NCBI GenBank assembly: GCA_963847655.1
Contig: CAWKAS010000005.1
Span: 364,319 to 428,318, forward strand
Source: an uncultured Acidobacteriota bacterium
Lineage (GTDB): Bacteria; Acidobacteriota; Vicinamibacteria; Fen-336
Length of the DNA stretch: 64,000 nt
Direction: 5' to 3'
The notes under the pieces were generated by a model. It did not search any database, was not told the origin of the DNA, and saw only the letters and a program-made list of their open reading frames with translations. This document shows positions 10,395-61,032 of the stretch, one piece after another (position 1 is the first letter of the stretch; every line of letters starts with the position of its first letter). Both the position numbers and the translations under genes were made by a program.

Positions 10395-10471
10395 ACCCTA
10401 GGCTCTATCGGCTCTAGTCCCTCTGGAGGAGACGAGACCTCCCGACGCCGTGGGGCCCCGAGGGCTCGTGT

Positions 10472-11235: not shown

Positions 11236-11251
11236 GGGAGGAGAGAGGCAC

Positions 11252-13159: not shown

Positions 13160-13172
13160 CCTGCCGGTTTCC

Positions 13173-13211
13173 GTGCCCCAGGCGTTCTCGAGCCGAGAGC
13201 GCCTGGGGCGC
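13173..13211 (+). terminator. long stem-loop after aprA (partial terminator or mRNA stabiliser)
   Basis: GTGCCCCAGGCGTTCTCG-AGC-CGAGAGCGCCTGGGGCGC; no clear U-tract. Confidence 0.55.
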
Positions 13212-13243
13212 TCTCTCCCGGGCTTCTTTCGAAGGGGGATCGC

Positions 13244-27482: not shown

Positions 27483-27498
27483 TGGCCCGAGGGTTGCT
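27483..27498 (+). promoter_or_regulatory. sigma54 promoter of dsr operon
   Basis: TGGCCCGAGGGTTGCT (TGGC-N7-TTGCT). Confidence 0.6.
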
Positions 27499-30537: not shown

Positions 30538-31008
30538 ATGCCCAAGCTGAAGGCCTCCGGGAAGAAGGCCGTGAAGAAGAAGACGGGACCGCAGCGGACC
30601 CAGGAGATGGTCGACGCCATGAGGCAGTGGCAGGGGATCGAGCGCGACGCGATCGACACCTGCACCGAGCTCATGGAGAAGAGCGACAACCTCCTCGTGC
30701 GCCAGATCATGGAGATCATCCGCAACGACTCCGTGCAGCACCACCGTGTGCAGCAGTTCATCATCGACAGCCTCACGTCGACCCCGGTGCACCTGAGGCC
30801 CGAGGATCTCGCCGTCATCTGGGACGAGATCGAGAAGCACGACGCCGTCGAGAGGGAGACGATCAAGCTCGGGAAGGAGCTGGCCAAGGACTGCCCCTTC
30901 TTCGTTCAGAAGACCCTGCTCGACTACCTGATCTACGACGAGGAGAAGCACGACAAGCTCCTCGGCGAGCTCGAGAAGTTCAAGAAGAACCTGTATCCGT
31001 ACGCCTAG
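30538..31008 (+). CDS. ferritin/rubrerythrin-like four-helix protein
   Basis: Duplicated E..D/ExxH pattern: GIERD, RNDSVQH, AVERE, DEEKH. Confidence 0.7.
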   Translation: MPKLKASGKKAVKKKTGPQRTQEMVDAMRQWQGIERDAIDTCTELMEKSDNLLVRQIMEIIRNDSVQHHRVQQFIIDSLTSTPVHLRPEDLAVIWDEIEKHDAVERETIKLGKELAKDCPFFVQKTLLDYLIYDEEKHDKLLGELEKFKKNLYPYA

Positions 31009-44885: not shown

Positions 44886-45771
44886 CCTGCTGGCGTTGCT
44901 GGCCCTGGCCCTGGCCCTGGTCCTGCCGCTCCCGCTTCTCGCCGGAGGCCAGGCCCCCGGCGAGAAGCCTCTCCGGCTCGGCGTCGTCACCTTCTACAGC
45001 CCGCGGCTCATGTTCGTGAAGTACCAGCCCCTGGTGGACTACCTCAGCGCGCGGACCGGGCGACGCTGGGCCCTGAACGTGAGCTCCTCCTACGAGACCA
45101 CCGTCGACGATCTGTGCTCGGGGCGAGTGACGCTCGCCTACCTCGGTCCCCTGAGCTACCTCAGGGCGCACGCCCGGTGCGGGGCGGAGCCCATTCTGCG
45201 CCTCCAGACGCGCGGAAGCGCCGTGTTCCACAGCGACATCCTGGTGCGCTCGGACAGCCCCTTCGAGCGACTCGAGGACCTCAGGGGACACCGCGTCGGC
45301 TTCGGCGATCCCCTGTCGACGTCGTCGCATCTCCTGCCCAGGGCTCTGCTCCAGGACGCGGGACTCGAGGCGGGACGCGATTTCGCGTGTCGCTACTTCG
45401 GGCAGCACGAGCGCGCCGCCCGCGCCGTCCTGATGGGGGAGGTCGAGGCCTGTGGGGTCCGCGACCTCATCGGCGAGCTCTTTCTCCGGCGCGGGTTGCG
45501 ACGCCTCGCCCGCTCCGGCCCCGTCCCCGCCTATCCGCTGGTCGTCTCGCCCGGCACCCCGTCGGAGCTTCGTGAGAGCCTCACCTCCTTCCTCCTCGGT
45601 TTCCCCGGCAGCGCCCGCCCGGCTCTCGGCGACGAGCGCTGGGACCTGGAGCTGACCGGGGGCTTCGCCGCCGCCGTCGACTCGGACTACGACCCCGTGC
45701 GTCGGATCGCGGAGCGGGTCTTCGGACCCGACTTCCCCAGCCGGCCCGAGGGAGAGCTGCGTTGTCACTGA
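44863..45771 (+). CDS. PhnD/PtxB-like periplasmic oxyanion-binding protein (no ABC partners)
   Basis: Signal peptide, YQPLVDYL, YLGPLSY, FGDPLSTSSHL, H..AVL.G. Confidence 0.85.
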   Translation: MRGRATSSLLALLALALALVLPLPLLAGGQAPGEKPLRLGVVTFYSPRLMFVKYQPLVDYLSARTGRRWALNVSSSYETTVDDLCSGRVTLAYLGPLSYLRAHARCGAEPILRLQTRGSAVFHSDILVRSDSPFERLEDLRGHRVGFGDPLSTSSHLLPRALLQDAGLEAGRDFACRYFGQHERAARAVLMGEVEACGVRDLIGELFLRRGLRRLARSGPVPAYPLVVSPGTPSELRESLTSFLLGFPGSARPALGDERWDLELTGGFAAAVDSDYDPVRRIAERVFGPDFPSRPEGELRCH

Positions 45772-47249
45772 GGTCGAGGCTGGGCCTCCCGCGCCTCGGC
45801 TTGAGGCCGAAGATCTTCCTCTTCACCAACGTGGCCATCTCCGCCACCCTGGGCCTGGTCACGGTGCTGGGCGCCGCCAACGAGCGTCGCCACCAGTACG
45901 AGGGCCTCGAGCAGCGCGCGCGCAGCGTGGCCGCGGCGCTGGCCGTCCCCATCACCGACGCCCTCATGAACGAGGACCTCGGGATCGTCCCCGACACTGG
46001 TCTCACCGACACCTACATCTCCGAGATCCTGGCCAGCAACCGCGACTCGATGCTGTACGTCATCGTGACGGACGCCGCCGGCACGGTGACGCACTCCAAC
46101 CTCTGGTCGCGGGTCGGGCGCCCCTTCGAGCGAGCCCTCGACCGGTCGTCGGTCGCGGCCCCTCCGGCCCCGGAGATCCGGACGGCCGACGACGGCGAGC
46201 GCGTGATGGAGGTGCGGGAGCCACTCCACATCTCGACGCGATTCTGGGGCTCGCTCGCGGTGGGCTTCTCCGTGGAGCCGGTGGAGCGCCGCATCGAGGT
46301 CATCGTCTCCCGTCTGGTGGTGATCGCGCTGCTGGTCATCGCCGCCAACTCCGTGATCAGCGCGATCTCGATGGAGTGGCTGATCCGGCCCATCCTCAAC
46401 CTGCACCAGGTCATGCAGCGCGCGGGGCGCGGCGATCTCACCGCCCGCGCTGGCGCCGAGCGTCACGACGAGATCGGGGAGCTCGCCCGGGCCTTCAACG
46501 GCATGATGGACGAGCTGGAGGAGAGCCGCGAGCGCGAGAAGGTGCGTCGGGCGCAGCTCGCTCACACGGAGAAGATGGCGGCGGTCGGAACCCTCGCCGC
46601 CGGGGTGGCCCACGAGGTGAACAACCCCGTGGCCGGAGTCCTCACCTGCATCGAGAACATGCGTGCCGACCCCGAGAACCGGGAGATGCGGGATCGCTAC
46701 CTCGAGCTCATCCACGACGGGCTGAAGCGCATCGAGAAGACCGTCGCAAACCTGCTCGACTTCTCGAGGCCACGCTCCATGCGGCTGGGGCCGACCTCGC
46801 TCAACCAGAGCCTCACCCAGGTCCTCGAGCTCGTACGTTTCCAGCTCCGCAAGGGCGGCGTGCAGACGCGCTTCGAGCTCGATCCCCGGGACCCCTGGAT
46901 CGCCGGTGACCGCTTCCAGATCGAGCAGCTCTTCCTGAACCTCGTGCTCAACGCCCTCCAGGCCATGCCGGAGGGAGGTACGTTGACCCTGCGAACGCGG
47001 CGACAGGGTGCCTGGGAGCTGGTCGAGGTCGGCGACACCGGCACCGGCATCCCCGAGGCCATTCGCGAGCGGATATTCGACCCCTTCTTCACGACCCGCG
47101 AGGTCGGCCAGGGCACGGGCCTGGGACTCGCCGTCAGCTACAACATCGCCGCCGCCCATGGAGGCGGGATCGAGGTGGAGACGACCGTGGGCGAAGGGTC
47201 GGTCTTTCGGATCCTCTTCCCCGCCGACGGGGACGAGGAGGAGGGGTGA
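45762..47249 (+). CDS. HAMP-domain sensor histidine kinase
   Basis: 2 TM, DEIGELARAFN, AHEVNNP, NLVLNA, DTGTGI, GTGLGL. Confidence 0.93.
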   Translation: MSLRSRLGLPRLGLRPKIFLFTNVAISATLGLVTVLGAANERRHQYEGLEQRARSVAAALAVPITDALMNEDLGIVPDTGLTDTYISEILASNRDSMLYVIVTDAAGTVTHSNLWSRVGRPFERALDRSSVAAPPAPEIRTADDGERVMEVREPLHISTRFWGSLAVGFSVEPVERRIEVIVSRLVVIALLVIAANSVISAISMEWLIRPILNLHQVMQRAGRGDLTARAGAERHDEIGELARAFNGMMDELEESREREKVRRAQLAHTEKMAAVGTLAAGVAHEVNNPVAGVLTCIENMRADPENREMRDRYLELIHDGLKRIEKTVANLLDFSRPRSMRLGPTSLNQSLTQVLELVRFQLRKGGVQTRFELDPRDPWIAGDRFQIEQLFLNLVLNALQAMPEGGTLTLRTRRQGAWELVEVGDTGTGIPEAIRERIFDPFFTTREVGQGTGLGLAVSYNIAAAHGGGIEVETTVGEGSVFRILFPADGDEEEG

Positions 47250-48646
47250 TGGCGATCTGCGGCAACCGCCTCCTGATCGCCGAGGACGAGCCCCTGCTCC
47301 GCGTGAGCATGTCCGACGCGCTCCGGAAGGAGGGGTGGACGGTCGACGTCGCCGCCGACGGGGTCAAGGCCGCGGCCCTGTTCGAGCAGTACCTCCACGA
47401 CGTCGTCGTCAGCGACCTGGTGATGCCGTCCCTCGACGGAATGGGGCTGCTCCGTCGAGTGAAGGAGCTGCACGCCGACTCCACCGTGGTCATCATCACC
47501 GCCCACGGGTCAGTGGAGAAGGCGGTGGAGGCCATGCGCCAGGGGGCGGCGGACTTCGTCACCAAGCCCTTCTCGATGACACAGCTGCTGGTCCGCCTCG
47601 AGAGCGTGTGCTCGCGGCGACAGCTCCAGCAGGAGAACGTCCGCCTGCGGGAGCAGCTCGCGGACCGTTACTCGTTCTCCAACATCATCGGGAAGTCCCG
47701 GAAGATGCAGGAGGTGTTCTGGCTGATCCGGGAGGTGGCCCACTCCGACGCCACCGTCATGATCCAGGGAGAGAGCGGAACGGGCAAGGAGCTCGTGGCC
47801 TCCGCCATCCACTACAATTCCAGGCGCAAGGCCCGACCCTACGTCCGCGTCAGCTGTGCGTCGCTGCCCGAGTCGCTGGTCGAGTCGGAGCTGTTCGGCT
47901 ACGAGAAGGGAGCCTTCACCGGGGCCGGCCAGAGGCGCATCGGCCGCTTCGAGGCCGCCGCGGGCGGGACGCTCTTCCTCGACGAGATCGGCGACCTTCC
48001 CCTGGCCGTACAGGCCAAGCTCCTCCGCGTGCTGCAGGAGCGGCAGATCGAGCGGCTGGGATCGAACCATCCCATCGACGTCGACGTCCGCTGGGTCTCG
48101 GCGTCTCTCCGATCGCTGGAAGAGGAGGTCGCCCAGGGTCGTTTCCGCGAGGACCTCTTCTTCCGCGTCAACACGGTGCCCATCCACCTGCCGCCCCTCC
48201 GGGAGCGACGCGAGGACATCCCGCTCCTCGCGGAGGCGTTCCTGCGCGAGTTCGCCGGGGAGCGGGGCAAGGACCTCGAGGGCCTCTCCGACGCCGCCCT
48301 CGAGGTCCTCGACGGACACGGCTGGCCCGGCAACGTGCGCGAGCTCCGCAACGTCATCGAGCGGGCCGTCGTGTTCTGCCACGCCCCGCGCATCACGCCC
48401 GAACACCTGCCCCCGGGCCTCCGCGACGCGCCCGTGTCGTCTCCCTCGCCGGGGCCCCCCGGTCCGCCGGAGCCCCTTCGTCAGGCGGTGGAGCGCGCCG
48501 AAGCCGAGGCGATCCGGACCGCCCTGGCCGCCACCGACGGCCGCCGAAACGAGGCCGCCGAGATCCTCGGCATCAGCCGCAAGACCCTCTGGGAGAAGAT
48601 CAAGGCCTACGGCCTTGACGCGCCGGCATCTCCGAAGAGGGCGTAG
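47249..48646 (+). CDS. sigma54-dependent response regulator (NtrC/AtoC family)
   Basis: REC, GESGTGKE, GAFTGA, LDEIG, WPGNVREL, Fis HTH. Confidence 0.95.
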   Translation: MAICGNRLLIAEDEPLLRVSMSDALRKEGWTVDVAADGVKAAALFEQYLHDVVVSDLVMPSLDGMGLLRRVKELHADSTVVIITAHGSVEKAVEAMRQGAADFVTKPFSMTQLLVRLESVCSRRQLQQENVRLREQLADRYSFSNIIGKSRKMQEVFWLIREVAHSDATVMIQGESGTGKELVASAIHYNSRRKARPYVRVSCASLPESLVESELFGYEKGAFTGAGQRRIGRFEAAAGGTLFLDEIGDLPLAVQAKLLRVLQERQIERLGSNHPIDVDVRWVSASLRSLEEEVAQGRFREDLFFRVNTVPIHLPPLRERREDIPLLAEAFLREFAGERGKDLEGLSDAALEVLDGHGWPGNVRELRNVIERAVVFCHAPRITPEHLPPGLRDAPVSSPSPGPPGPPEPLRQAVERAEAEAIRTALAATDGRRNEAAEILGISRKTLWEKIKAYGLDAPASPKRA

Positions 48647-48842
48647 ATGCCGGCGCCGTCCGTTCTTCGTTCCTGGGCGGGGCCGACACCACATCCCGAC
48701 CCGGGCCGCAGCCCGCCGATGCCGGCAGTCCCTTCGCGCGCTCGTCCACTCTCCCAGGCCCGGCCTCGACCGCCCCGCCCACACAAGGCCCTGCTCCACC
48801 CGACCCCGCTGTGAGGCCCTCGAAGCAGCGTGGCGCGGACGT

Positions 48843-49241
48843 TCAGCGGGCGGCCGGGCTGCAGACCTGCTCGAGTGTCTTCAGGAGCTTCTCGGCGTCG
48901 ACGGGCTTCTCGAGGTACGCATCCGGGTGGTGCTTCTTGAATCGGTTCAGGAAGTTGCCGAAATCGTGCGTCAGCGTGTCCTGGATCCCGGTGACCAGCA
49001 CCACCGGCACCGCCTGGGTCGTCGGGTCCTTGCGCAGGGCGATCAGGGTGCTGAGGCCGCCGCGCTCGGGCATCATCACGTCGAGGAGCACCACGTCCGG
49101 CACCTCTTCGCGGGCCAGGGCGAGGCCCTCGTCGGCCGAGTTGGCGGTGCGCGTCTTCCACCCCTGGTCGTCCAGGAGGGTGGACAGGTAGGTCGTCTGA
49201 TCAGGCTCGTCGTCGATGACGAGCGCGCGGAGCTGGGCCAT
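48843..49241 (-). CDS. stand-alone response-regulator receiver
   Basis: VIDDE, LLDVMMP, VTG, EKP; GGAGG RBS. Confidence 0.9.
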   Translation of the reverse strand: MAQLRALVIDDEPDQTTYLSTLLDDQGWKTRTANSADEGLALAREEVPDVVLLDVMMPERGGLSTLIALRKDPTTQAVPVVLVTGIQDTLTHDFGNFLNRFKKHHPDAYLEKPVDAEKLLKTLEQVCSPAAR

Positions 49242-49312
49242 CTCGCCTCCCTGGCGATCCCGGAATCGGGCCGCCGCGTCAATGTGCGCCAAGCATAGCA
49301 CCGGGGAGCAGG

Positions 49313-49711
49313 CTATCCCGGGGTCGAGCTCACGAGCGCGGTCCCCTGCAGGATCGAGAGGAGGAGATCGCGCTCCATGGGTTTCCCGAGCACGTGGTCG
49401 GGACCCTTGACGTCTTGATGGGTTTCGAGATAGGAACGACACTCGTCTCTGAGCACGTTGTCGTCCCCGGTCACGAGAACGAGGGGGATTTCCGCCCGCC
49501 GCGGGTCGCGCCGCAGGCGGACGAGGAGATCGAGGCCCGACTTCCCCGGCAGCATGACGTCGATCAGGATGACGTCGGGGCTCGAGCGCTCCACCTGGGC
49601 CAGGGCCGAGCGCTCGTCCTGGGCCGCCACGACCTCGTAACCTTCGTCCTCGAGGAAGGAGGACAGGTACTCGACGACGTCCGGGTCGTCGTCCACCACC
49701 AGGACCCTCAT
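49313..49711 (-). CDS. stand-alone response-regulator receiver
   Basis: VVDDD, LIDVMLP, VTG, GKP; ATGA overlap with kinase. Confidence 0.9.
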   Translation of the reverse strand: MRVLVVDDDPDVVEYLSSFLEDEGYEVVAAQDERSALAQVERSSPDVILIDVMLPGKSGLDLLVRLRRDPRRAEIPLVLVTGDDNVLRDECRSYLETHQDVKGPDHVLGKPMERDLLLSILQGTALVSSTPG

Positions 49712-51195
49712 GTGGCCTCCGCCGTCGTCCGCTCGGGGGGCCGAGTGCTCGGCCGCGCCTGCAGGGGCAGGCGCACGAGGAAGCGGGTCCCGCGCCCCGG
49801 CTCCGACTCGACCTCGATGCTGCCCCCGTGCCTGTCGACGATCTTGTTGGCGATGAAGAGCCCGAGCCCCGTTCCCTTGATGCCCTTGGAGGAGAAGAAG
49901 AGCGAGAAGATCTTCTCCCGGGTCTCCCGGTCCATCCCGATCCCGTTGTCCTCGATCTCGAAGACCATCCAGGGCGGGGTCCGCCACGCGCCGAGAATGA
50001 CCCGGTGCCCGTCCTTCTGCCGATCGCCCCGGCAGGCCTCGAGCGAGTTCTCCAGGATGTTCACCAGCATCGAGCGGATGGCCTTGTAGTCGCCCTGGAG
50101 CGCGCCCGCGTCGCCACGGATCTCCACCTCGAGCACCGTGCCCTGGTCGTTCGCCTTCTTCTCGATCACCTCCCGGAGCTCGGAGACGAGCTGCTCGACG
50201 CTCACCTCGCTCAGCATCAGCTCCCGGTCCTTCGCATAGTAGAGGATGTCCAGGACCATGCTCCGGATCGCGGTCACGTTCCGCTGGACCATGTCCCAGC
50301 CTTTCTTGACACGCTCGGGACGCTCCTTTTCCAGGCCGGTGTTGACCAGGTAGATCCCCCCGTCCAGCCCGCTCAGCAGCCCCTTGATCCCGTGGGAGAT
50401 GGAGCCCACCAGGAGCCCGATCGAGGCGAGCTGGGGCTGGAGCCGGCGCAGCTCGGTGATGTCGACGGACATCTCGATGGCACCCTCGACGTGGCCTTCG
50501 CCGTCGTGGACCGGAGCGGTCGTGCAGAGGACGTTGATCCTCTCCCCCTCGGCCGAGAAGACGACCTCCTCGTGATGACGCACCTCGCCGTCGGTGAGGG
50601 TCCGCAGGGTCGGGCACACGAGGCACTGCTCCTCCCGGTGCTTGTAGACCCGGTAGCAGTGGTTCCCCACCGCGGGCCCGAAGGTCTCGCGAAACTTGCG
50701 GTTGGCGTGACGCACCACCAGGTCGGGACCCTGGACGGTGACGTAGCAGGGCACCTCCTCGAAGAGCTGGGCCAGACGGTCCTGGCTCTGCTGGAGCATC
50801 CTCTCGAGACGCTTCATCTCGGTGAGGTCGGTGTGCATCTCCATGACCGCCACCACCTTGCCGGCCTCGTCGCGGACGGGGGTGGTGTTGACCATGACCG
50901 GGACCTTCCGGCCCCGCCGGTTGATGAGGGTCTGCTCGCTGCTGTGGCTCTCTCCGTCGGCGAAGGTCGCCTCCACCGGGCAGTCCGGGCAGACGCCCTC
51001 GAGACCCTTGTAGACCTCGTAGCAGGGCTCGCCCAGCCGGCCTCCGAAGTCCTCGCGAAACCGGCGATTCCCGTCGACGATCCGGAACTTCCGGTCGTGG
51101 ATCGACAGGTAGCACGGCATGTCCTCGAAGTACTGCCGGTACGGCTCTTCCGGGCCCGCAGCGGCCATTCGCGGCGCGGCGCTGTCAGCCGGCAT
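49708..51195 (-). CDS. cytoplasmic histidine kinase with two Cys-rich PAS domains
   Basis: Two C-X10-C-X2-CP motifs, SHGIKG H-box, ENSLEA, DNGIG, GTGLGL. Confidence 0.9.
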   Translation of the reverse strand: MPADSAAPRMAAAGPEEPYRQYFEDMPCYLSIHDRKFRIVDGNRRFREDFGGRLGEPCYEVYKGLEGVCPDCPVEATFADGESHSSEQTLINRRGRKVPVMVNTTPVRDEAGKVVAVMEMHTDLTEMKRLERMLQQSQDRLAQLFEEVPCYVTVQGPDLVVRHANRKFRETFGPAVGNHCYRVYKHREEQCLVCPTLRTLTDGEVRHHEEVVFSAEGERINVLCTTAPVHDGEGHVEGAIEMSVDITELRRLQPQLASIGLLVGSISHGIKGLLSGLDGGIYLVNTGLEKERPERVKKGWDMVQRNVTAIRSMVLDILYYAKDRELMLSEVSVEQLVSELREVIEKKANDQGTVLEVEIRGDAGALQGDYKAIRSMLVNILENSLEACRGDRQKDGHRVILGAWRTPPWMVFEIEDNGIGMDRETREKIFSLFFSSKGIKGTGLGLFIANKIVDRHGGSIEVESEPGRGTRFLVRLPLQARPSTRPPERTTAEAT

Positions 51196-51238
51196 CGCTC
51201 GTCGCTCCCGTGGCCTCCCTCACGGCGCAGCCTTGCGC

Positions 51239-53044
51239 CTACGCCTTCCTCTCTCGCAGGTCGAGGATGCGCTTCAGGTTGGAGACCAGCTCCTCCTCGT
51301 CCACCGGCTTGTCCATGTAGCCCTCGGGCGGCGGGACCGCCCGGTCGTAGATGACCTTGCGGAACTCCGGGTGTCCGGTCACCACACACACCGGGATCTC
51401 CTTCACCTCCGGGTGCCTCCGCATCTCGGCGAAGGTCTCGACCCCGTCCTTGCCCGGCATCGAGAGGTCGAGGGTCACGAGGTCCGGCTTCTCCTTCACC
51501 ATGAGGGCGATGGCCTCGTCCCCGTCCGTGGCCTCCAGGGTCTCGGCCCCCGCGTCCTCGAGTACGGTGGTGAGGAAGACTCGGACGTCCTCCTCGTCGT
51601 CGACGACGAGGATCCGCCGACCGCCGAGGGCCGCCAGTGGCTCCGGCTTCGGCTCGCCCGCCTCGACCGGCGGCGGGGCTGGGGCCGGGCCCTCCTTCGG
51701 TGCCACCACCTCCGGCTTCTCGAGCTCGTCCAGGACCAGGGCCTTCGCCACCAGGTCCACGAGCTGCTTGACCTCGCAGTCGAGCTTGTAGTGCTTGATG
51801 AGGTCCCCGAGCCCGTCCACGCAGTTGTGGCAGGAGGTGACCACGATCTTCGCCCCGGTGGCCCGGATCTGGTCGGCCTTGACCTTCGCCGAGGCGAGCC
51901 GCCGCGGCGTGTACTCCGACATGGACATGGCCCCGCCCCCGCCGGTGCAGCAGTAGTTCTCGGCGCGGTTCGGGTACATCTCCTGGAAGTCGGTAACCAC
52001 CAGCTCGAGCAGCTCCCGGGGCTCCTCGTAGAAGCCGCAGCTGCGGGCGTTGTTGCACGAGTCGTGGAACGTGACCCGGTCGGTGTTGCGCGTCTTGTCG
52101 ACCTTGATCCGCCCCTCCTCGATGTAGCGGAGCATGGTCATGACCGAGCTCTCCATGGTGAAGCCCACGTCGACCCCGGCCCAGTTGGGGGCCTCGCAGC
52201 GGGTCGAGCGATAGCCATGTCCGCACTCGGAGATGACCAGGCGTTCCGAGCCGAGCTCGGCGCACTTCTCGTAGACGCGCTTGCCGCAGACACCGCCGAG
52301 CTGATCGTCACCGGAGAAGAGGCCGAAGTTCGTCTGGTCCCACCCCTCGCTCGGCATCGTCCAGTCCTCGCCGGCGGCGTAGAAGATGAGGGCGGCGGCC
52401 TTGATCGTCCGCGGGTCATACTTGGCCTCCCGCGGGTTGATCGCATACATCACCTTCGCGCCCTTCTTGTCCACCGGGATCTTTGCGCGATCGTGACCGA
52501 GCTGCTCCTCGAGCTCCTCGGACATCCACTCGAGGGTGTCCAGGTAGTCCTCCTTGAGGACCCCCATCTGGTTCCCGATCTCCCACTGGTCCTTGCTGAC
52601 CACGCGCACGCCCTCGGGCATCACCCCCACGCGGGACAGCAGCCCCCGCATGATGCGGTTGAGGGTCGCGGTGTCCACCCCCATGGGGCAGTTGTAGGTG
52701 CAGCGGCGGCAGTTGGTGCAGGTCCCGAAGGCGATGTCCTTCAGCTCTTCGAGGTCCTCGTCGGTCAGCGGCGTGCCCGCCTTGACCCACGTCGGGAAGA
52801 CCCGACCCGTCCAGTCGTGGTGCTGCTTGAAGATCTTGCGCAGCTGGTCCGCCTTGTACGACGGCGTCATCCTCGGGTCGTCGGGGAAGGCCAGGGCGTA
52901 GTGGCACGCCTCGTGGCACATGCCGCAGTGCACGCAGCCGACCAGCGACCCGACCACCTGCCGGGTCAGCTTCTTGGGGAGCTGCTCGAGGATCTTCTCG
53001 ACCTTGTGGGATGGCGCGGGCGTGCTCAAGTCGGCCTCCTTCAC
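51239..53044 (-). CDS. HmcF/TmcB/DsrK-like Fe-S CCG oxidoreductase fused to a C-terminal receiver domain
   Basis: CVHCGMCHEAC, CTNCRRC, ECGH, FHDSCN, CCTGGG, SCHNC; Pro-rich linker; VVDDEE..LDLSMP..TG..KP. Confidence 0.88.
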   Translation of the reverse strand: MKEADLSTPAPSHKVEKILEQLPKKLTRQVVGSLVGCVHCGMCHEACHYALAFPDDPRMTPSYKADQLRKIFKQHHDWTGRVFPTWVKAGTPLTDEDLEELKDIAFGTCTNCRRCTYNCPMGVDTATLNRIMRGLLSRVGVMPEGVRVVSKDQWEIGNQMGVLKEDYLDTLEWMSEELEEQLGHDRAKIPVDKKGAKVMYAINPREAKYDPRTIKAAALIFYAAGEDWTMPSEGWDQTNFGLFSGDDQLGGVCGKRVYEKCAELGSERLVISECGHGYRSTRCEAPNWAGVDVGFTMESSVMTMLRYIEEGRIKVDKTRNTDRVTFHDSCNNARSCGFYEEPRELLELVVTDFQEMYPNRAENYCCTGGGGAMSMSEYTPRRLASAKVKADQIRATGAKIVVTSCHNCVDGLGDLIKHYKLDCEVKQLVDLVAKALVLDELEKPEVVAPKEGPAPAPPPVEAGEPKPEPLAALGGRRILVVDDEEDVRVFLTTVLEDAGAETLEATDGDEAIALMVKEKPDLVTLDLSMPGKDGVETFAEMRRHPEVKEIPVCVVTGHPEFRKVIYDRAVPPPEGYMDKPVDEEELVSNLKRILDLRERKA

Positions 53045-53727
53045 CCACGGACGTAGGGCATGCTGCCCCGGTGGCCCAGGCTTCGGCCCAGCCAGTAGCG
53101 GGTGAACGGGTAGTACAGGTAGTGGGAGATCTTCGAGAACGGCACGTAGATCAGGAAGAAGCTCGTGGCGAGGAGGAACGCCACGAGGAAGAGCTCGCTC
53201 TGGAGCCAGCCCCGGAAGTAGGCCTGGGCGAGCGTCCCGGACCCGAACCAGCCGGTGAGCATGATCACCGAGAAGTAGTCGTCGGGGGAGCTGATGAGAC
53301 GGAGGTGCGGAAGGGTGAAGCGCCGCACGATCCGGTATAGGCCGATCAGGAAGGCGACCCCCAGAATCCCCATCACCGTCGTCCCCACCGCCGGGATCTC
53401 CACCGCCGGCCGGTAGAGCGAGCTCACGAAGGCGAGCCCGATGCCGGCGGCCACGCCGAGGTGGAAGAGGATGAAGGTCGCGTAGAAGGGCAGGCCCTTC
53501 CGGGTGCTCTCCATGGCCCAGGGCATGAGGACGTTGCCCAGCGAGTAGAAGCCTCCCCTGGTGGCGTTCGTCTTGTCGGGCCGTCCGGGCGGCTGGCGCT
53601 CACGGGCGTTGCGGAACTGGTGCAGCCAGACGAGGCGCACGGTATAGACGAGGACCATGATGGCGAGAGCGATCCAGTGGATCGTCTCCGCGGTGGCCAG
53701 GAGCGTGCTGGGCTCATGGTGCTCCAT
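53041..53727 (-). CDS. HmcE/TmcC/NarI-like membrane protein
   Basis: PWAMES, FHLG, ISSPDDYF, YVPFSKISHY; GTGA coupling to the Fe-S gene. Confidence 0.8.
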   Translation of the reverse strand: MEHHEPSTLLATAETIHWIALAIMVLVYTVRLVWLHQFRNARERQPPGRPDKTNATRGGFYSLGNVLMPWAMESTRKGLPFYATFILFHLGVAAGIGLAFVSSLYRPAVEIPAVGTTVMGILGVAFLIGLYRIVRRFTLPHLRLISSPDDYFSVIMLTGWFGSGTLAQAYFRGWLQSELFLVAFLLATSFFLIYVPFSKISHYLYYPFTRYWLGRSLGHRGSMPYVRG

Positions 53728-53728
53728 T

Positions 53729-54280
53729 TCAGGCTCCTTCCTGGATCCGGGCCTCGAAGGCCCCGCGCTCGCGGGAGTCCGGGATCACGAACAACACCGC
53801 CCGGAGCCCGGTCTCGCCGGCGAGGTGCTCGACGACGGCGTCGACCAGCACCCGCGCGCAGAGGTCCACCGGCACCTGGTAAAGGCCCGTGCCCATCGGG
53901 GGAAACGCCAGGGTCTCGACCCCGTTCTCGTCGGCCAGCCGAAGGGCCGCCTGCGCGGCCCGGCGGAGCTTGCCCTCCTCGTCCGGCTCGCAGAACTTGG
54001 GACCGTTGGCGTGGATGATGTGCTTCGCCTTGAGGAGCCCCGCTGTGGTGATGACCGCCTCGCCCACGGGACACGTTCCGATGGCGTCGAGGGCCTCCTG
54101 GATCTTGACGCCCCCTCGCTGCTGGATGGCGCTCCCGTGACCCGAGCCCAGCTTGACGTCCTCCGTGATGTCGTAGACGAAGGCGTCGACCTCCATGGCC
54201 GTGATGTCGTCGCGCACCAGCCTGATGAACTTGTCTCCGATCTTCCGTTCCACCATGTGCTCCACCATCACCGGTGTCAT
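53729..54280 (-). CDS. macro-domain protein (divergent)
   Basis: DIT..VDAFV, GEAVITTAGLL.AKHIIHANGP, LAFPPMGTG. Confidence 0.85.
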   Translation of the reverse strand: MTPVMVEHMVERKIGDKFIRLVRDDITAMEVDAFVYDITEDVKLGSGHGSAIQQRGGVKIQEALDAIGTCPVGEAVITTAGLLKAKHIIHANGPKFCEPDEEGKLRRAAQAALRLADENGVETLAFPPMGTGLYQVPVDLCARVLVDAVVEHLAGETGLRAVLFVIPDSRERGAFEARIQEGA

Positions 54281-54843
54281 CCCGTGGGGCTCCTTTGCGC
54301 GACTCCCCTGGCGGTGGCCGGCGTCTTGCGGGCTCGACGGCGGCCGCGCCGGGGCCCGTGCGACGCGGTGCACGGATCGGGGCCGTCGGGGGTCGAGGCC
54401 AGAGCGGCGGGCGTGATGCCGCCGTGCTCGGCCAGCCAGTCCGCGTCCATCAGATCCGCCAGCGTGAGCGAGTGCAGGGTGTCTTCGATCCGCCGGTTGA
54501 GGAGACAATACAGGGCCCTGGTCTCGCAGCGGACCGCCCGCTCGCAGAGGGACGGCCTTCGCACGCAGTCGACGAGACAGACCTCCCCGATGGAGGCCTC
54601 GACCACGTCCCCGATCCGGATCCCCGCAGGCTCCGACCCGAGCATGTAGCCGCCCTTGCGGCCCGCCACGCCGCGCAGGAGACGGGCTCGGCGCAGCCCC
54701 ATGGCCAGCTGCTCCAGGTAGCCGTGGGACAGGTCGGTTCGGAGGGCCACCTGGGCCAGGGGCACGGGGTTCTTCCCGCCCCCATGGCGAGCGATGTCGA
54801 GCATCACGCGAAGGGCGTATCGAGCCCGGGTCGAGAGCTTCAT
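54277..54843 (-). CDS. Rrf2-family (IscR-like) transcriptional regulator
   Basis: MKLSTRARYALR, YLEQL, GRKGGY, CLVDC..C..C. Confidence 0.92.
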   Translation of the reverse strand: MKLSTRARYALRVMLDIARHGGGKNPVPLAQVALRTDLSHGYLEQLAMGLRRARLLRGVAGRKGGYMLGSEPAGIRIGDVVEASIGEVCLVDCVRRPSLCERAVRCETRALYCLLNRRIEDTLHSLTLADLMDADWLAEHGGITPAALASTPDGPDPCTASHGPRRGRRRARKTPATARGVAQRSPTG

Positions 54844-54860
54844 CCGTCCTCCCCGCGCTC

Positions 54861-54887
54861 AATTACCCACCATTCTGGTAGGCAATT
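54861..54887. promoter_or_regulatory. probable Rrf2 operator (AT-rich inverted repeat)
   Basis: AATTACCCACCA-TTC-TGGTAGGCAATT (10/12 arm match) 17 nt upstream of the rrf2 start. Confidence 0.6.
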
Positions 54888-55192
54888 TCCATGAGCCTCT
54901 TGCCTCAGTTGACCGGCTCTTTGTCTCACCCGGGAGAACCGGGCGGGGGCGCCTCCCAGGACGGAAGGACGCAGGTCGGGTCAGGACGACCAGGACTGGA
55001 GCTGGATGACGTTGTCTTCCGGGTAGAAGCGCGAGAGCCGCTTCCAGTCTCTCGCGACGATCCTCACGTGTCCGAAGACCGGCTCCGCCGAGCTCATGGC
55101 CGCCCTCCCGCTCGCCCCAGGTCCCTCATCCTATCCGAGGCGCCGGGGACCCGAGGCGAGCGGCGGGCGGGTGCGTCACGCCCGCCGAGCCG

Positions 55193-56143
55193 TCACTCGA
55201 GCGGGATGCGGTCCTTGTTCTCGGCCAGCCAGACGTCGAAGCTCTGCAGGGCCGGGTTGAGCTCCCTCGTCCTGTCGACGCTGCGGGGGCCACAGAAGGC
55301 GTCCTGGAAGTCGCGCTTGAACTGGAACATGTTCCCGAGGTCGTCCGCTCCCGGGAAGCCAAATCCGCGGTAGACCTCCGGCGGCACGTCGTTGTACTTG
55401 ACCTCGTCGCCGAGGGCGCGGCCCAGGGCGGCCGCCATCTCGGCACCGGTCAGGTGCTCGCCGGCGATGGCGACGGTCTTGCCGACCAGCCCGGGGCCCT
55501 TCTTGAAGATCCCGTAGGCGGCCTTGCCGATGTCGACCGCGGCGATGCCGGGCAGCTTGCCCGTGCCCATCGGCATGGTGATGGCGAGGACGCCGTCGGG
55601 TCCCTTCTTCGGACCCATCCCGAAGTGGATGAAGTTGTCCCAGTAGAACGACGTCAGGAGGAAGGTGGTCGGCACCCCGAGCTCGGTGAAGATCGCGTTG
55701 CCCTCGCCCTTGGCGTCGAAGTGCGGCACCTTGTACTTCTCCTGGAGCGTCGGCATGCGGTCGTCGGTCAGGGGAACCCACTTCCGTGTGTCCTCGAGCG
55801 TCGACCAGACGACGTGCTTGAGGCCCGTCTCCTTCGCCGCCGTCGCCATCGCCCGGATCTGAGCGAGCTCCTTCTCCGGCGAGAAGTGCTCCCAGAAGAA
55901 GGTGACGCAGTAGGCCCCGTAGGCCCCGGCAAACGCCTTCTTCAGGCTGCCGACGTCGTCGACGTCGGCCTCGACGACCTCGGCCCCGAGCTTCGCGAGG
56001 CCCAGGGCCTTGTCGGAGCTCGCCTTCCTCGTGATGGCCCGCACGGCGAAGCCGCCGTCCGGGTCGGCGAGTATGGCCCTCACCAGGCCGCTACCCTGGG
56101 CTCCGGTGGCTCCCACTACGGCAATGATCTTCTTCTCAGGCAT
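55193..56143 (-). CDS. NmrA/HSCARG-family NAD(P)-binding protein
   Basis: VVGATGAQG, VTFFWE, WSTLED, VPHFDAK. Confidence 0.92.
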   Translation of the reverse strand: MPEKKIIAVVGATGAQGSGLVRAILADPDGGFAVRAITRKASSDKALGLAKLGAEVVEADVDDVGSLKKAFAGAYGAYCVTFFWEHFSPEKELAQIRAMATAAKETGLKHVVWSTLEDTRKWVPLTDDRMPTLQEKYKVPHFDAKGEGNAIFTELGVPTTFLLTSFYWDNFIHFGMGPKKGPDGVLAITMPMGTGKLPGIAAVDIGKAAYGIFKKGPGLVGKTVAIAGEHLTGAEMAAALGRALGDEVKYNDVPPEVYRGFGFPGADDLGNMFQFKRDFQDAFCGPRSVDRTRELNPALQSFDVWLAENKDRIPLE

Positions 56144-56446
56144 CGACTCTCCTCACTTCGATTGACAGGGCCCTCAAACGACTCGGGGGCGGCACGCTCC
56201 ACTCTCCGGCTCGCGCTCACGAGCGATCCGATCGCCCTTCGGTGTCGCCACCCCTCGACCGCTGCCGTCACGGCGCAGACGGCGAAACGGCCCGGGGTGA
56301 CCGGGTCCGATGGGCTCTCGTTGACCGGAATGGAAGCTGCGTCCATCGTAACCCAGGTCGCGCTTTCGGGGAATGACGCCGGGAACGGGCCACGGTGGGG
56401 GCCGGTCCAATCCCCGGGCAGGGCGGGCGGGGCGCCTCGGCCGAGC

Positions 56447-57295
56447 TCAGGCGAAGATGTCGAGGGCGACGTCGAGGGAGGGGGCGCTGTGGGTGAGCCA
56501 GCCGAGAGAGAGGAGGTCCACCCCGGTCTCGGCGACCTCACGCACGTCGTCGGGGCGGATGCCTCCCGAGGCCTCGGTCAGCGCACGTCCGCGGGCGCGG
56601 CGGACGGCCTCGCGCAGGGTCCCGAGGTCCATGTTGTCGAGCAGGATCACGTCGACGCCGAGCCCCAGGGCCTCGTCGAGCTGCTCGAGGGTGTCCACCT
56701 CCAGCTCGACCTTGACCATGTGGCCCACGCCCTTCCGCACGCGCTCCACCGCGGGGGTGATTCCCCCGGCCACGGCCACGTGGTTGTCCTTGATCAGCAC
56801 GGCGTCGTCGAGGCCGTAGCGGTGGCTCTCTCCCCCTCCGACCAGGACGGCGTACTTCTCCAGGGCCCGGAGCCCGGGAGTGGTCTTGCGGGTGCACGCG
56901 ACCCTCGTGGGCAGCCCCTCGAGGCGCCGGACCACGTCTCGCGTCACGGTGGCGATCCCGCTCAGGTGCCCCAGGAAGTTGAGCGCCGTGCGCTCGCCGG
57001 TGAGGAGCGCGCGCGCCGTGGCGCGCACCCGGGCCAGGACCTCCGCCCCGGCCACGCGGCTCCCGTCGGGCTGCAGCACCTCTGCCGTCGTCGCCGGGTC
57101 GAGGGCACGGAAGACGGACAGGGCCACCTCGAGACCGGCCACGCAGCCCGGAGCCCGGGCGACGATGGCCGCCTCTCCGGAGCGGTCGGCGGGGACGGTG
57201 GCGTCGGTCGTGATGTCCCCGGCCCGCCCCAGGTCCTCGGCGAGAGCGCGCCGCACGACATCGTCGTACAGCAGGGGGGGCAGGGCGGGGCTCAC
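56447..57295 (-). CDS. nadC: quinolinate phosphoribosyltransferase
   Basis: [36 protein letters not shown]. Confidence 0.95.
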
Positions 57296-58896
57296 GCCGT
57301 AACCACCTGACGCTCCCTCGGCGGCGACGGGATCGGCTCGATGGCCAGCTGCTCCCGGTCGCGGCTCCGGCTCAGGACGATCCGTCGCGCCCAGGCAGTC
57401 CGGGTGTCGGGGTGGTCGGCGCGGAAATGCCCCCCACGGCTCTCCGGTCGCGCCAGCGCGGCGCGCGCCACGAGGCGCGCGACGGTGCAGAGGTTGTGAG
57501 CCTCCGAGACGCCCCGGGGAAGCTCGGCGGCCAGGACGTCGATCTCGTCCAGGGCGTCCCTCAGCCCTTCACCGGTGCGCACGAGGCCGACCTTCTCCCA
57601 CATCAGCCGACGCAGGCGGACCGACTGCCCGTGTCCCACCGCGGAGTCCGCCAGCGCCGCCGACACGACCTCGGGAGGCGGGGGCGACGCGGGCCGAGGG
57701 CCCCGGGACAGCTCCTTCCCCACCGAGCGGGCCACCCGCGCACCGTAGACGAGGGCCTCGAGGAGGGAGTTGCTGGCCAGCCGGTTGGCGCCGTGCACGC
57801 CGGTGCAGGCCACCTCTCCCGCCGCCCAGAGCCCCGGGCGCGACGTGCGCCCGTCGGCGTCCACCAGGACGCCCCCCATGTGGTAGTGCGCCGCCGGGGC
57901 CACCGGGATCGGCTCGACCCGGGGGTCCAGCCCGTGGGCCCGACAGGCCTCGAAGACGGTCGGGAACCTTGCCGGGAAGGCGTCTCCCACGGCCGCGAGG
58001 GCATCCAGGAGCGGCCGGCGGCCCTGGGCCAGGGCCTTCCAGATTCCCCGGGCCACGATGTCGCGGGCCTGCAGCTCCCCCCCGGGGGCGTCGAAGATCG
58101 GACGGTCGTGCTCGTCGACGAGCCGGGCCCCCGCACCGCGCAGGGCCTCGGTCAGAAGGGGCATCGGGTCCTCGCCGACGTCGAGGGCGGTCGGGTGGAA
58201 CTGGACGTACTCCAGGTCGCCGAGCCGCGCCCCGATCCTCCAGGCCAGGGCGAGGCCGTCACCGGTGGCTTCGACCGGGTTCGTGGTGCGGGAGTAGACC
58301 TGGCCGATGCCCCCGGTGGCCAGGACGACGGCACGAGCGCGGTGGAGGACCAGGGCGCCGTCGCGATGCCGCACGAGCACACCCGCCAGCCGTCCGCCGT
58401 CGGTCACCAGCTCGAGGGCAAAGCTCTCCTCGAACACGGTCAGCCCGCTCACCCGCCCCAGGGCGGCGCCGAGGGCACGGACGATCTCGGCTCCGGTGGC
58501 GTCCCGCGCGTGGAGGATGCGCTGCCGGGAGTGGGCCGCCTCGCGGGCCAGGTCGAGCTCCCCGCTGGCGTCACGGTCGAAGCGCGCCCCCAGCTCGATG
58601 AGCGCGGCGAGCCGCTCCGGACCCTCCGCGGTCAGCCGGGCCACGGCCTCGGGATCGCCCACCGCGCCCCCGACGGCCAGGGTGTCGGCGGCGTGGAGGG
58701 CCGGGGTGTCGTCGGGGCCCACCGCCCCGGCCACCCCGCCCTGGGCCAGGGGGCTGTTCCCGGTGCGCGAGAGGGGCCCCTTGGCCAGGAGGTCCACCGA
58801 GCGGTCGGCCAGGCCGAGGGCCACGCTCAGCCCGGCGGCGCCGGCGCCGATCACCACCACGTCGGCATCGCGGATCTCGTCGGGCCGCGTGCTCAT
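57292..58896 (-). CDS. nadB: L-aspartate oxidase
   Basis: [47 protein letters not shown]. Confidence 0.95.
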
Positions 58897-59927
58897 CGGC
58901 CCTCTCCCCGCCCGACCTCCAGCATCCTCTCGACCGCGGCGCGGGCCCGCTCCGCCACCTCCGCCTCCACCTCCACCCGGTGCTCCATCTGCTGGAGCGC
59001 CCGGAGGATGTTGGGCAGGGTGATCCGCTTCATGTGCGGGCAGAGGTTGCAGGGGCGGATGAACTCGGTCTCCGGGAACTCCACCGCCACGTTGTCGCTC
59101 ATGGAGCACTCGGTGATGAGGACCACACGGGGTGGCCGGTGCGCGGCGAGGTGCTGGATCAGTCCGGAGGTCGAGCCCACGAAGTCGGAGGCGGCCAGGA
59201 CGTCGGGCGGGCACTCCGGGTGGGCGAGGACGGCGATGTCCGGGTGCTGCCGGCGGTAGGCCTCGATCTCCTCCCCGGTGAAACGCTCGTGCACCTCGCA
59301 GTGCCCCTTCCAGAGGACGATCTCGGTGTCGGTCTGCGACGCCACGTAGCGCCCCAGGTACTCGTCGGGCAGGAAGACGACTCGTTCCGCCTTCAGGGAC
59401 TCGACGACCTCCACCGCGTTGGCCGACGTGCAGCACACGTCCGACTCCGCCTTCACCGCGGCCGAGGTGTTGACGTACGTCACGACCGGGGCGCCCGGGT
59501 AGCGCTCGCGGAGCAGGCGCACGTCGGCGGCGGTGATCGACTCGGCGAGGGAGCAGCCGGCCTCGAGGTCCGGGATGAGAACGGTCTTCTCCGGGCTCAG
59601 GATCTTGGCGGTCTCCGCCATGAAGTGGACGCCGGCCATCACGATCACGTCGGCGTCGGTGTCCGCGGCCATGCGTGCCAGGGCCAGAGAGTCGCCCTTG
59701 AGGTCGGCCACCCCGTGGAAGATCTCCGGTGTCTGGTAGTTGTGCGCCAGGACGACGGCGTGTCGCCTCGCCTTCCACTCGCGTATGGCGTCGACGTACG
59801 GGGCGTGGACCGGCCACTCCATCTCGGGCACGACGCGGCGCACCCGCTCGAGGACGTCCGCGGTGCGACGGGCCACCTCCGGCGTGTAGCGCGGTTCCTC
59901 TCCCGCCGGGGTCGGGGCCGTGCTCAT
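58893..59927 (-). CDS. nadA: quinolinate synthase
   Basis: LAHNYQ, GVHFMAE, AGCSLA, YVNTSA, HPEC, CPHMK; AAGGAGG RBS. Confidence 0.95.
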
Positions 59928-59940
59928 CTCGGGCCTCCTT

Positions 59941-59961
59941 TTATGCTCCCCATGAGCATAA
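59941..59961. promoter_or_regulatory. NadQ operator 1
   Basis: Perfect 21-bp palindrome TTATGCTC-CCCAT-GAGCATAA next to the nadA RBS. Confidence 0.85.
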
Positions 59962-60006
59962 TAGGTGTTACAAGAAAGGGCGGCCATACCGCCCAAATCA
60001 CCCTCA

Positions 60007-60027
60007 ATATGCTACTTCGGAGCATAA
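60007..60027. promoter_or_regulatory. NadQ operator 2, overlapping a minus-strand sigma70 promoter (TTGACT-17-CATATT)
   Basis: ATATGCTA-CTTCG-GAGCATAA. Confidence 0.75.
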
Positions 60028-60066
60028 AAGTCAAGGCGGCGTCTGGCGGCGGGTGGGCGAACTACT

Positions 60067-61032
60067 CTACCGACGCCCCAGGCCCACGCCGGGAGCGAGG
60101 CGCTCCCGCAGGACCTCACGCCGGAAGCGGAACAGCTCGGCCGGGCGGCCCACGCCCTGGGGCTCGACCACCCCGGTTCCCTCGACCAGGCCTCCCTTCT
60201 CGACGAGGCGACGGAAGTTCTGCTTGTGCAGGCGAGCCCCGGCCAGGGCCTCGACCACGCGCTGAAGGCGCAGGAGGGTGAAGGTCGGTGGCACCAGCTC
60301 GAAGACCACCGGCCGGTACTTGAGCTTGCCGCGCAGACGCCCCAGGGCGGTGGCCATGAGGCGCCGGTGGTCCAGGGCCATTGACACTCCCAGCACGGCG
60401 GGCTTCCCCGCGGAGGTCTTGCCGCGATCACGGCGCGCCTCCCCGACGAGGCCGGCCTCGTAGAGCAGCTCGTACCTCTCCAGCACCCGCTCGCCCCCGA
60501 ACGCGACACCGCGCAGGCCGAAGGCGATGTCGGCCCGCTCGCGGCGGGCCCGCCGGGTCTGGGCGTCCGAGGCCTTCCCCGCCCAGCGGGCCAGCGCCGG
60601 GGCGATCACGCCCTCGATCAGCTCGGGGCGGCCGGTGCGGGCGTCCTCCCAGGGCAGGAACTCGTAGAAGCCCCGCCAGCGGGCCCGGCCCCCTCCGGCC
60701 ACCCGGCCCTCGCGCACGAGAGCGAGGTAGGCGATCGAGAGGACGCGGGGACCGCCCGCCCGCTCCCGGGGGTCGCGGTGACGATCGCCGAAGGTGTACA
60801 GCTGCTCCGCATAGCCGAGCTCGAGGCCGGTCTGCTCGTGCACCCAGTCGCGCAGGCCCAGCTCCAGGGTGCGGTGACCGGCGGGGTCCAGGGGACCGAA
60901 GGGGAGCGCTGTCTCCTGAACGCCCGCTTCCTGCGGCCCGCGCTCCTTGCGCTCCACCGTCAGCAGCCGCGGCTCCTCGTCGGTCACCGCCACGATGACC
61001 GCGTTCAGGCCGACGATGAGGGAGGGGGACAC
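60067..61032 (-). CDS. nadQ: NadQ/NrtR-like Nudix-wHTH NAD regulator
   Basis: LPFGPLDP..HRTLE, EQLYTFGDR, KLKYRP, FTL..LQ, LHKQNFRR, GRPAELF. Confidence 0.85.
   Translation of the reverse strand: MSPSLIVGLNAVIVAVTDEEPRLLTVERKERGPQEAGVQETALPFGPLDPAGHRTLELGLRDWVHEQTGLELGYAEQLYTFGDRHRDPRERAGGPRVLSIAYLALVREGRVAGGGRARWRGFYEFLPWEDARTGRPELIEGVIAPALARWAGKASDAQTRRARRERADIAFGLRGVAFGGERVLERYELLYEAGLVGEARRDRGKTSAGKPAVLGVSMALDHRRLMATALGRLRGKLKYRPVVFELVPPTFTLLRLQRVVEALAGARLHKQNFRRLVEKGGLVEGTGVVEPQGVGRPAELFRFRREVLRERLAPGVGLGRR

Follow-up and report, generated by a model that had tools for sequence, protein, structure and literature searches.

This locus raises the question of whether an enzyme of sulfur respiration can itself be the output of a two-component system. 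The window, meaning the whole 64,000-nucleotide stretch from an uncultured Acidobacteriota bacterium that was analysed (G+C about 69%), carries at 48843–54843 seven tightly packed minus-strand genes. They encode an Rrf2-family regulator, a macro-domain protein, a small membrane protein, an iron–sulfur (Fe-S) protein with a CCG domain fused to a receiver domain (REC), a PAS-domain histidine kinase, and the stand-alone receivers REC1 and REC2. The earlier note on this DNA had claimed a compact operon of this content, and all seven genes were found as it described them. Start and stop codons overlap by 4 bases at three junctions, as ATGA between the Rrf2 and macro genes and between the kinase and REC1 genes, and as GTGA between the membrane-protein and Fe-S genes, which fits one transcription unit. 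The cassette is read here as encoding a two-subunit membrane redox module, accessory in nature and of the DsrMK/HmcEF/TmcBC type, in which an enzyme of the DsrK/HmcF/TmcB type has been made into a response regulator; it is conserved and widespread, and no published description of it was found.

The central protein of 601 residues (51239–53044, minus strand) has Pfam matches to Fer4_8 (residues 36–123), CCG (324–408) and Response_reg (478–590). Its catalytic part, with Fer4_8 and CCG, extends together with the tether from residue 1 to about 475 (51619–53044, minus strand). Conservation was read from an alignment of the window protein with 73 complete loci, from which two truncated loci, one cut at its N-terminus (L063), three unfused loci and a split locus were omitted. 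Eight cysteines of the ferredoxin type (C37, C40, C43 and C47; C109, C112, C115 and C119) are each present in 74 of the 74 sequences, as are C365, C366, C405 and C408 of the CCG site, and C330 is present in 73. There is a single Pfam CCG stretch, in which the CC pair is followed by TGGGG instead of G. A further invariant cysteine, C274 (74/74), lies in the sequence SECGH. The signature of DsrK, HmcF and TmcB is given, in the part of PMC10861901 that was available, as a single CCG motif (CXnCCGXnCX2C) and a cysteine in T/G-ECGH. The two four-cysteine Fer4 motifs, the one CCG site and the ECGH cysteine of this group are all found in the window protein, and the tree described below places its family nearest HmcF/TmcB, so that the DsrK/HmcF-like identity first proposed is upheld.

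The fused receiver (residues ~476–601; 51239–51618, minus strand) scores 76.9 bits against Response_reg (cut-off 30.2). All phospho-acceptor residues had been claimed for it, and they are kept throughout the family: D482 (73/74) and D483 (74/74) form the acidic pair, D526 (74/74) is the predicted phospho-acceptor, and T556 (73/74, with one serine) and K579 (74/74) complete the pocket. The Pfam score, acidic pair, aspartate, threonine or serine and lysine of a CheY-like receiver are thus all found. The domain is less conserved than the catalytic core, to which it is joined by a tether rich in alanine, glutamate, proline and valine (about residues 441–475) with a length of 13–70 residues across the family (median 26). 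In addition, C553 (51385–51387) lies three residues before the conserved threonine (PVCVVTG) in 73 of the 74 sequences. A cysteine at this position is unusual among receivers and might render the fused receiver itself redox-sensitive.

An AlphaFold2 model from the 74-row alignment has a mean predicted local distance difference test score (pLDDT) of 92.1, with values below 50 only at residues 1–3 and 445–468, the latter stretch being disordered. The best fold match of the model is EtfD from M. smegmatis, followed by receivers, of which RR468, PhoB and DivK match the REC. Predicting a complex of residues 1–445 and 470–601 as separate chains gave run scores of 0.72, 0.00 and 0.00, a result that counts neither way.

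The fusion is real and old. Relatives were scanned with one genome per species, which gave 357 stretches encoding a relative, and the best 80 loci were kept; two of these are cut by a contig end, and the fusion is uninterrupted in 74 of the other 78. In L041, L078 and L081 the protein ends after the CCG domain and has no receiver, and in L082 the receiver is in another frame, the frame change lying inside the tether. PF00072 is found on all 120 best database matches (71–100% identical). A contig from a separate metagenome run covers 50879–51881 gap-free, across the tether at 51619–51727. Because of this independent contig, and because the fusion is kept in so many loci, the single reading frame is no assembly artefact. 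The earlier note had staked its reading on the receiver not proving to be a separate gene in reads or orthologues, and both checks came out in favour of the fusion. The records of the 80 loci are labelled as metagenome-assembled genomes of Acidobacteriota, Planctomycetota, Myxococcota, Zixiibacteriota, Thermodesulfobacteriota, Gemmatimonadota, Ignavibacteriales, Spirochaetales, Pseudomonadota and others, in all more than 10 phyla, across which the enzyme is 64–92% identical.

A tree was calculated with IQ-TREE from 64 rows picked for spread and was rooted at the midpoint only. The rows are 20 fused proteins of the main clade (the window protein and 19 loci), the three REC-less loci, the split L082, three distant fused proteins, five members of a sister clade, the relative P0126, 30 cluster representatives and the DsrK of the window. 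The cassette enzymes form their own clade (support 100/100), nearer to HmcF/TmcB than to DsrK, and the DsrK proteins form a separate clade. The first branches of the family are two REC-fused lineages, about 53% identical (L089 with L090, then P0121). The next split separates an unfused sister clade (100/100) from the main fused clade (100/99), within which L041, L078 and L081, the three loci without a receiver, are nested. P0126 is the next branch outward, followed by the HmcF/TmcB group. With midpoint rooting, one old gain of the receiver with later losses would be the simplest reading. Phylum labels are mixed among near-identical sequences, which suggests horizontal spread of the cassette. 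The carriers are mostly uncultured lineages of soil, marsh and sediment, and almost only genomes with dsrAB. Among the more distant relatives, P0162 joins an N-terminal NarI-type membrane domain to an Fe-S/CCG protein, and P0137 has a similar N-terminal extension of 250 residues.

The soluble PAS-PAS kinase and the two receiver-only proteins that had been described after the enzyme are encoded at 49708–51195, 49313–49711 and 48843–49241, all on the minus strand. The kinase has 495 residues, with two PAS_4 stretches and HATPase_c (87.6 bits), and is without a hydrophobic segment (maximum Kyte–Doolittle 19-mer 1.44). Gene order was counted by tblastn with the window proteins (E ≤ 1e-8) at loci with enough flank. 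H268, in the sequence SISHGIKG, is kept in 65 of 65 kinases and, with HATPase_c, marks the protein as a class I histidine kinase; the Pfam HisKA model is not among the reported matches. Solved kinases align to it from about residue 240. REC1 and REC2 match Response_reg with 76.7 and 69.7 bits. The three receivers of the cassette are 32–38% identical to each other (the fused one 32–35% to REC1 and 37% to REC2) and 26–31% identical to the receiver of an NtrC-type regulator encoded nearby.

This kinase lies downstream in all 65 fused loci. It is absent from the three REC-less orthologues (0/3), for which 4.3–10 kb of downstream sequence was available, and present in the split locus L082. From this contrast it follows that receiver and kinase were gained and lost together, in keeping with the pairing that had been proposed. 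The search for the Fer4/CCG–REC architecture and the synteny check suggested in the earlier note have thus both been made, and the fusion and its downstream kinase are found together well beyond the window.

Both PAS domains of the kinase are rich in conserved cysteines. C58, C69 and C72 of the first are each kept in 65 of 65 sequences and C28 in 53, and C150, C180, C191 and C194 of the second are each kept in all 65. Three-cysteine PAS domains bind Fe-S clusters in OrpR (PMC8359166) and NreB (PMC13478379), according to the portions of these two papers that were available. In those proteins, which regulate anaerobic or sulfur metabolism, as in the cassette kinase, the invariant cysteines number three or four per PAS domain. 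The spacing differs: it is C-x10-C-x2-C with one upstream cysteine in the cassette kinase and, by residue numbers, C-x8-C-x3-C in OrpR and C-x2-C-x11-C in NreB. A further difference is that two such domains occur in one cassette kinase, in which the cofactor is putative. By analogy, sensing of redox state, oxygen or sulfide by the PAS domains is plausible.

The membrane subunit, of 228 residues (53041–53727, minus strand), is predicted to be of the DsrM/HmcE/TmcC-like NarI type. It has several hydrophobic segments and is without a Pfam match, and it stays below the NCBIfam cut-offs for HmcE (67.3 against 275 bits) and TmcC (60.1 against 240 bits). Alignment to the DsrM of the window with hhalign gives a probability of 89.5% (E 2e-6) over 73 columns that include the PFSK.sH motif, by which it is a predicted distant relative of DsrM. 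Its gene is directly upstream of the Fe-S gene in 75 of 75 loci. Two histidines alone are invariant, H89 (75 of 76 copies) and H202 (76 of 76).

The link to DsrC comes from the relatives of the enzyme. P0126, an HmcF-like protein that is 45% identical, carries a Pfam DsrC domain at residues 449–537, where the receiver sits in the window protein. The unfused L041 (69% identical) is directly followed by a DsrC-like gene that has the last cysteine only. The unfused sister clade is held by seven genomes, of which five were fetched, and in all five a two-cysteine dsrC lies near the module, 56–59% identical to the dsrC of the window; it follows the module directly in L084 and L085, and in the other three (L083, L086 and L087) it is no more than about 4 kb away. 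A DsrB match was found in none of the seven genomes. The PhoU, OmpR-type regulator and membrane kinase genes upstream of the module in L084 and L085 were considered and rejected as a counterpart, as they are read as an ordinary DNA-binding system and not the PAS-kinase/REC design. Also in L085, a class-V aminotransferase gene of the cysteine-desulfurase-like kind (7669–8949, minus strand) adjoins dsrC (7339–7659), a hint of a sulfur relay in a genome without DsrB.

Distribution points the same way. Among 401 genomes sampled evenly from the window's phylum there are 18 carriers of a REC-bearing copy, including that of the window (17 and G094), and DsrB is found in 16 of these against 45 of the 401 genomes overall; the two carriers without it are 64% and 67% complete. 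For a wider view 50 of the 80 loci were chosen for taxonomic spread, the 30 that were dropped being mostly near-duplicate Acidobacteriota, and DsrB (E ≤ 1e-40) was found in 39 of these 50 carrier genomes, from many phyla. The cassette is almost wholly restricted to dsrAB genomes. The dsrC neighbours, the DsrC fusion in a relative and the co-occurrence with DsrB all bear out the connection with DsrC that had been claimed, and a DsrC-type protein is a candidate substrate.

The reading preferred here, which we regard as about evenly balanced against all others together, is that the cassette encodes an accessory quinol:DsrC-type oxidoreductase whose fused receiver would be phosphorylated by the cysteine-rich PAS kinase, with a change in activity as the result. 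The small b-type-cytochrome-like membrane protein and the cytoplasmic Fe-S/CCG protein, with its receiver on a flexible tether, would carry electrons between the menaquinone pool and a DsrC-type protein, parallel to DsrMKJOP. Through Fe-S or thiol chemistry, the PAS domains of the kinase would let it sense redox state, oxygen or sulfide, and the kinase would phosphorylate D526. The phosphorylated receiver may then alter the activity of the enzyme, for instance by opening or closing access to the DsrC site or through a change of oligomeric state. The one or two stand-alone receivers may compete for phosphoryl groups, as sinks or as a branch, and the three-cysteine Rrf2 protein may add a transcriptional layer.

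Several observations weigh against this reading. The enzyme falls below every NCBIfam equivalog cut-off for its presumed relatives (HmcF 322.5 against 750 bits, TmcB 310.5 against 735, DsrK 239.9 against 400). The genome already has a complete DsrMKJOP, and the cassette occurs in only 16 of the 45 DsrB genomes of the phylum sample, so that the pathway can do without it. Of the 50 spread carriers, the completeness of which was not told, 11 gave no DsrB match. DsrM is described with two bis-histidine haems, that is four histidines (PMC10861901, from its available part), against only two invariant histidines in the membrane subunit. With three receivers for one kinase, the fused one need not be the main acceptor. 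Finally, the macro-domain protein, present in 73 of 73 main-clade loci, is without a place in the model, and no other model explains it either.

The alternative that survives best, which we consider rather unlikely, reverses the direction of signalling. The redox module would serve as the input, telling the signalling proteins in which redox state the quinone pool or DsrC is; the fused receiver would tether the kinase or drain its phosphate, and the output would pass by the stand-alone receivers to targets elsewhere. This would suit a cassette that consists mostly of signalling genes by count (the kinase, two to three receivers and Rrf2), is accessory, as the 16 of 45 sampled DsrB genomes show, and has a small membrane anchor with two invariant histidines only. 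The stand-alone receivers are also conserved: in 58 of 63 loci the gene after the kinase encodes a REC, the other five (L012, L013, L066, L070 and L072) having rearranged or opposite-strand receivers, and a copy at least 50% identical to REC2 is present in 29 of the 80 loci, in 22 of them divergent and upstream of Rrf2. However, the pair of membrane and Fe-S proteins persists without PAS kinase and receiver throughout the sister clade and in the three orthologues nested within the main fused clade, which implies that the redox module has a job of its own. The catalytic cysteine set is fully conserved, and to our knowledge the enzyme is the output in known REC–enzyme fusions.

A narrower form of the preferred reading, quite unlikely in our estimate, gives the receiver a defined place of action. 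It would be a phosphorylation-operated gate or decoy of the DsrC docking site, by which an Fe-S PAS kinase that senses sulfide, oxygen or redox potential switches a second, DsrMKJOP-independent menaquinone–DsrC route on or off within seconds. The suggestion is made because the receiver occupies the position of the DsrC domain in the nearest fused relative. If true, this would be the first case of direct two-component control over a respiratory quinol oxidoreductase, and a Rosetta stone for unfused control on the Hmc- and Tmc-type complexes of classical sulfate reducers.

It is improbable, in turn, that the receiver regulates an enzyme acting on something other than DsrC. Such a substrate would be another disulfide or a polysulfide; the candidates are a low-molecular-weight thiol conjugate, possibly one that bears adenosine diphosphate (ADP) and is recognized by the macro protein, or the cysteine-rich PAS domains of the kinase. 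The macro gene (53729–54280, minus strand; Pfam Macro 92.1 bits, cut-off 22) speaks for this idea, for it lies upstream in all 73 main-clade loci with flank and is as conserved as the enzyme. Its product reaches no NCBIfam macro equivalog (best 107 against 200 bits), has Thermus TTHA0132 as its closest solved homologue, and is predicted to have an ADP-ribose-binding/hydrolase fold. The eight conserved PAS cysteines, the coenzyme A (CoA)-disulfide-reductase-like gene that ends the neighbouring dsr cluster, and the fact that DsrC is already served by DsrMKJOP would agree with it too. Yet the macro gene is absent from the distant fused subclade L089 and L090, as it is from the sister clade, a two-cysteine dsrC adjoins five of five sister loci, P0126 has a DsrC fusion, L041 has a DsrC-like gene directly behind it, and the cassette is tightly restricted to DsrB genomes. 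The macro gene has a further neighbourhood of its own: upstream of the cassette, at 55193–61032 on the minus strand, lie genes for an NmrA-like protein, nadC, a nadB-like open reading frame (ORF), nadA and an NrtR-type regulator of nicotinamide adenine dinucleotide (NAD) metabolism, so that NAD-salvage and ADP-ribose themes adjoin it, the NmrA gene being common only to the three closest loci.

That the fused receiver is a structural or dimerization module which is no longer phosphorylated, the kinase acting on the stand-alone receivers only, would accord with the variable tether (13–70 residues) and the lower conservation of the receiver, but is very improbable given that its five pocket residues are kept in 73–74 of 74 sequences over more than 10 phyla and that receiver and kinase are lost together.

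The cassette encodes a DNA-binding regulator of its own. The Rrf2-family regulator (54277–54843, minus strand; Pfam Rrf2 103 bits) reaches rrf2_super of NCBIfam (TIGR00738; 102 bits, cut-off 73) and does not reach the equivalog cut-offs of IscR, NsrR and RirA. It is a member of the Rrf2 family with three cysteines, C93, C100 and C106, each kept in 51 of 51 aligned copies, and its gene is upstream in 46 of 68 loci. The statement of the earlier note that there is no DNA-binding response regulator holds inside the operon and fails just outside it, where a HAMP kinase and a sigma-54 NtrC-type regulator (45762–48646, plus strand) converge on the cassette end. Beyond the window, only the three closest relatives (L003–L005) have this pair. 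A scan of the window for the sigma-54 −24/−12 pattern gave 31 matches against 43 expected, none of them upstream of the operon, and so lent no support to control of the operon by the neighbouring NtrC-type regulator. A −24/−12-like sequence with one mismatch lies at 27483–27497 (plus strand), about 400 bases upstream of dsrA, the pattern not being enriched window-wide. Scanning 48500–55300 for sigma-70 promoters and terminators gave none beyond chance and none that is intergenic. Two RNA libraries yielded contigs that agree with portions of the kinase, REC1 and Fe-S genes at 0–9 differences, which is a weak hint of expression only; stretches without such cover do not count as silence. A search of sequencing runs for the window found partial holders only, with at most 0.35 of words in common.

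Among known systems the nearest are HmcEF and TmcBC of Desulfovibrio, which share with the cassette the two ferredoxin-type clusters, the single CCG motif, the ECGH cysteine and a membrane partner, predicted to be of the NarI type in the cassette, and are the nearest named group in the tree. An Rrf2 gene accompanies the cassette as rrf2 accompanies hmc, to judge from the part of that literature that was available. In contrast to Hmc and Tmc, the cassette is without genes for a periplasmic multihaem cytochrome, HmcB, HmcC, HmcD and TmcD: no cytochrome c, NrfD or tail-anchored Fe-S gene was found within 48843–54887, nor any of the same subunits in the conserved core of the 80 loci by tblastn, for which the queries were window genes only. 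It has instead a fused receiver and a dedicated kinase, and scores far below the HmcF and TmcB cut-offs. Signalling genes may stand near such complexes elsewhere. The rrf1 gene of hmc presumably encodes a response regulator, and we take receiver genes to lie beside tmc in D. vulgaris. In L092 (G402:C10) an Hmc-like cluster at 5506–15587, with cytochrome c, Fe-S, NrfD and a TmcB-like protein (700 bits), has beside it a divergent kinase, a PAS kinase and a REC protein of 181 residues; no such genes accompany L091, the other true TmcB locus, the comparison being of two genomes only.

The complete receiver on a flexible linker to an enzymatic domain, with a cognate kinase encoded alongside, recalls CheB and PleD, which are response regulators with enzymatic output. 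The cassette differs from them in that its receiver is C-terminal and its enzyme is no signalling enzyme but an Fe-S subunit belonging to a membrane redox module. With DsrMK it shares the two-subunit logic, the catalytic signature, the attachment of DsrC to its nearest relatives and the presence of dsrAB. It differs in that the enzyme lies outside the DsrK clade, the membrane subunit is smaller (two conserved histidines against four) and a receiver has been added. DsrMKJOP itself acts as a menaquinol:DsrC-trisulfide oxidoreductase, as stated in the available part of PMC10861901.

The architecture is already visible in databases under the automatic Joint Genome Institute (JGI) name ‘Fe-S oxidoreductase/CheY-like’. 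A search of the literature in full text, supplements apart, found no study of a receiver on HmcF, TmcB, DsrK or a CCG/HdrD-type protein, and a search on DVU0258–0260 and rrf1 found nothing relevant beyond a figure legend on hmc rrf1/rrf2. Little is known of how the final, energy-conserving steps of dissimilatory sulfur metabolism are controlled, or of the role of the many DsrK/HmcF/TmcB paralogues, and the cassette bears on both: it joins a respiratory-type enzyme, a phosphorylation switch and a probable redox or sulfide sensor, and suggests direct signalling control of sulfur respiration. If the preferred reading is true, it would give facultative organisms a post-translational means of controlling electron flow to or from DsrC, and would provide a defined protein set for in-vitro tests and a genomic marker of such a regulatory lifestyle.

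The cassette has the sulfate-reduction genes of the bacterium as its neighbours. A dissimilatory sulfate-reduction island, whole and on one strand of the window (10705–45771, plus strand), contains aprB, aprA, qmo-like genes, sat, dsrA, dsrB, a dsrL-like gene, dsrN, a TPR gene, dsrC, a dsrT-like gene (RsbRD_N), dsrMKJOP, and genes for siroheme synthase and a phosphonate-type binding protein. Its DsrK is a true DsrK (717 bits), from which it follows that the fused protein is an extra paralogue, and the cassette module is accessory to a complete DsrMKJOP. The source genome of 7.15 Mb, which is 94.5% complete, also encodes subunit I of a haem-copper oxidase, so the full sulfate-reduction set and an oxidase are both present in an organism that had been suggested to alternate between oxic and sulfate-reducing states. 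Similar gene content is reported for peatland Acidobacteria in the available part of PMC6018796. Pfam searches of the genome found neither DsrD nor DsrH, the DsrD search having given no match in any control genome either; with DsrL present and these two not found, the sulfur pathway may run in either direction.

Three further genes of the island deserve mention. A 156-residue ORF (30538–31008, plus strand) lies between dsrB and the dsrL-like gene, a frequent position of dsrD; it has a strong codon-position bias and is without a Pfam or NCBIfam match. Directly after dsrP, a CoA-disulfide-reductase-like flavoprotein is encoded at 41222–42943 (plus strand; 317 bits, below the cut-off of 579). Lastly, in a 645-residue ORF (18972–20909, plus strand), multihaem cytochrome c motifs (Cytochrome_C7/c3) are combined with a sulfite-exporter membrane domain of the TauE/SafE type.

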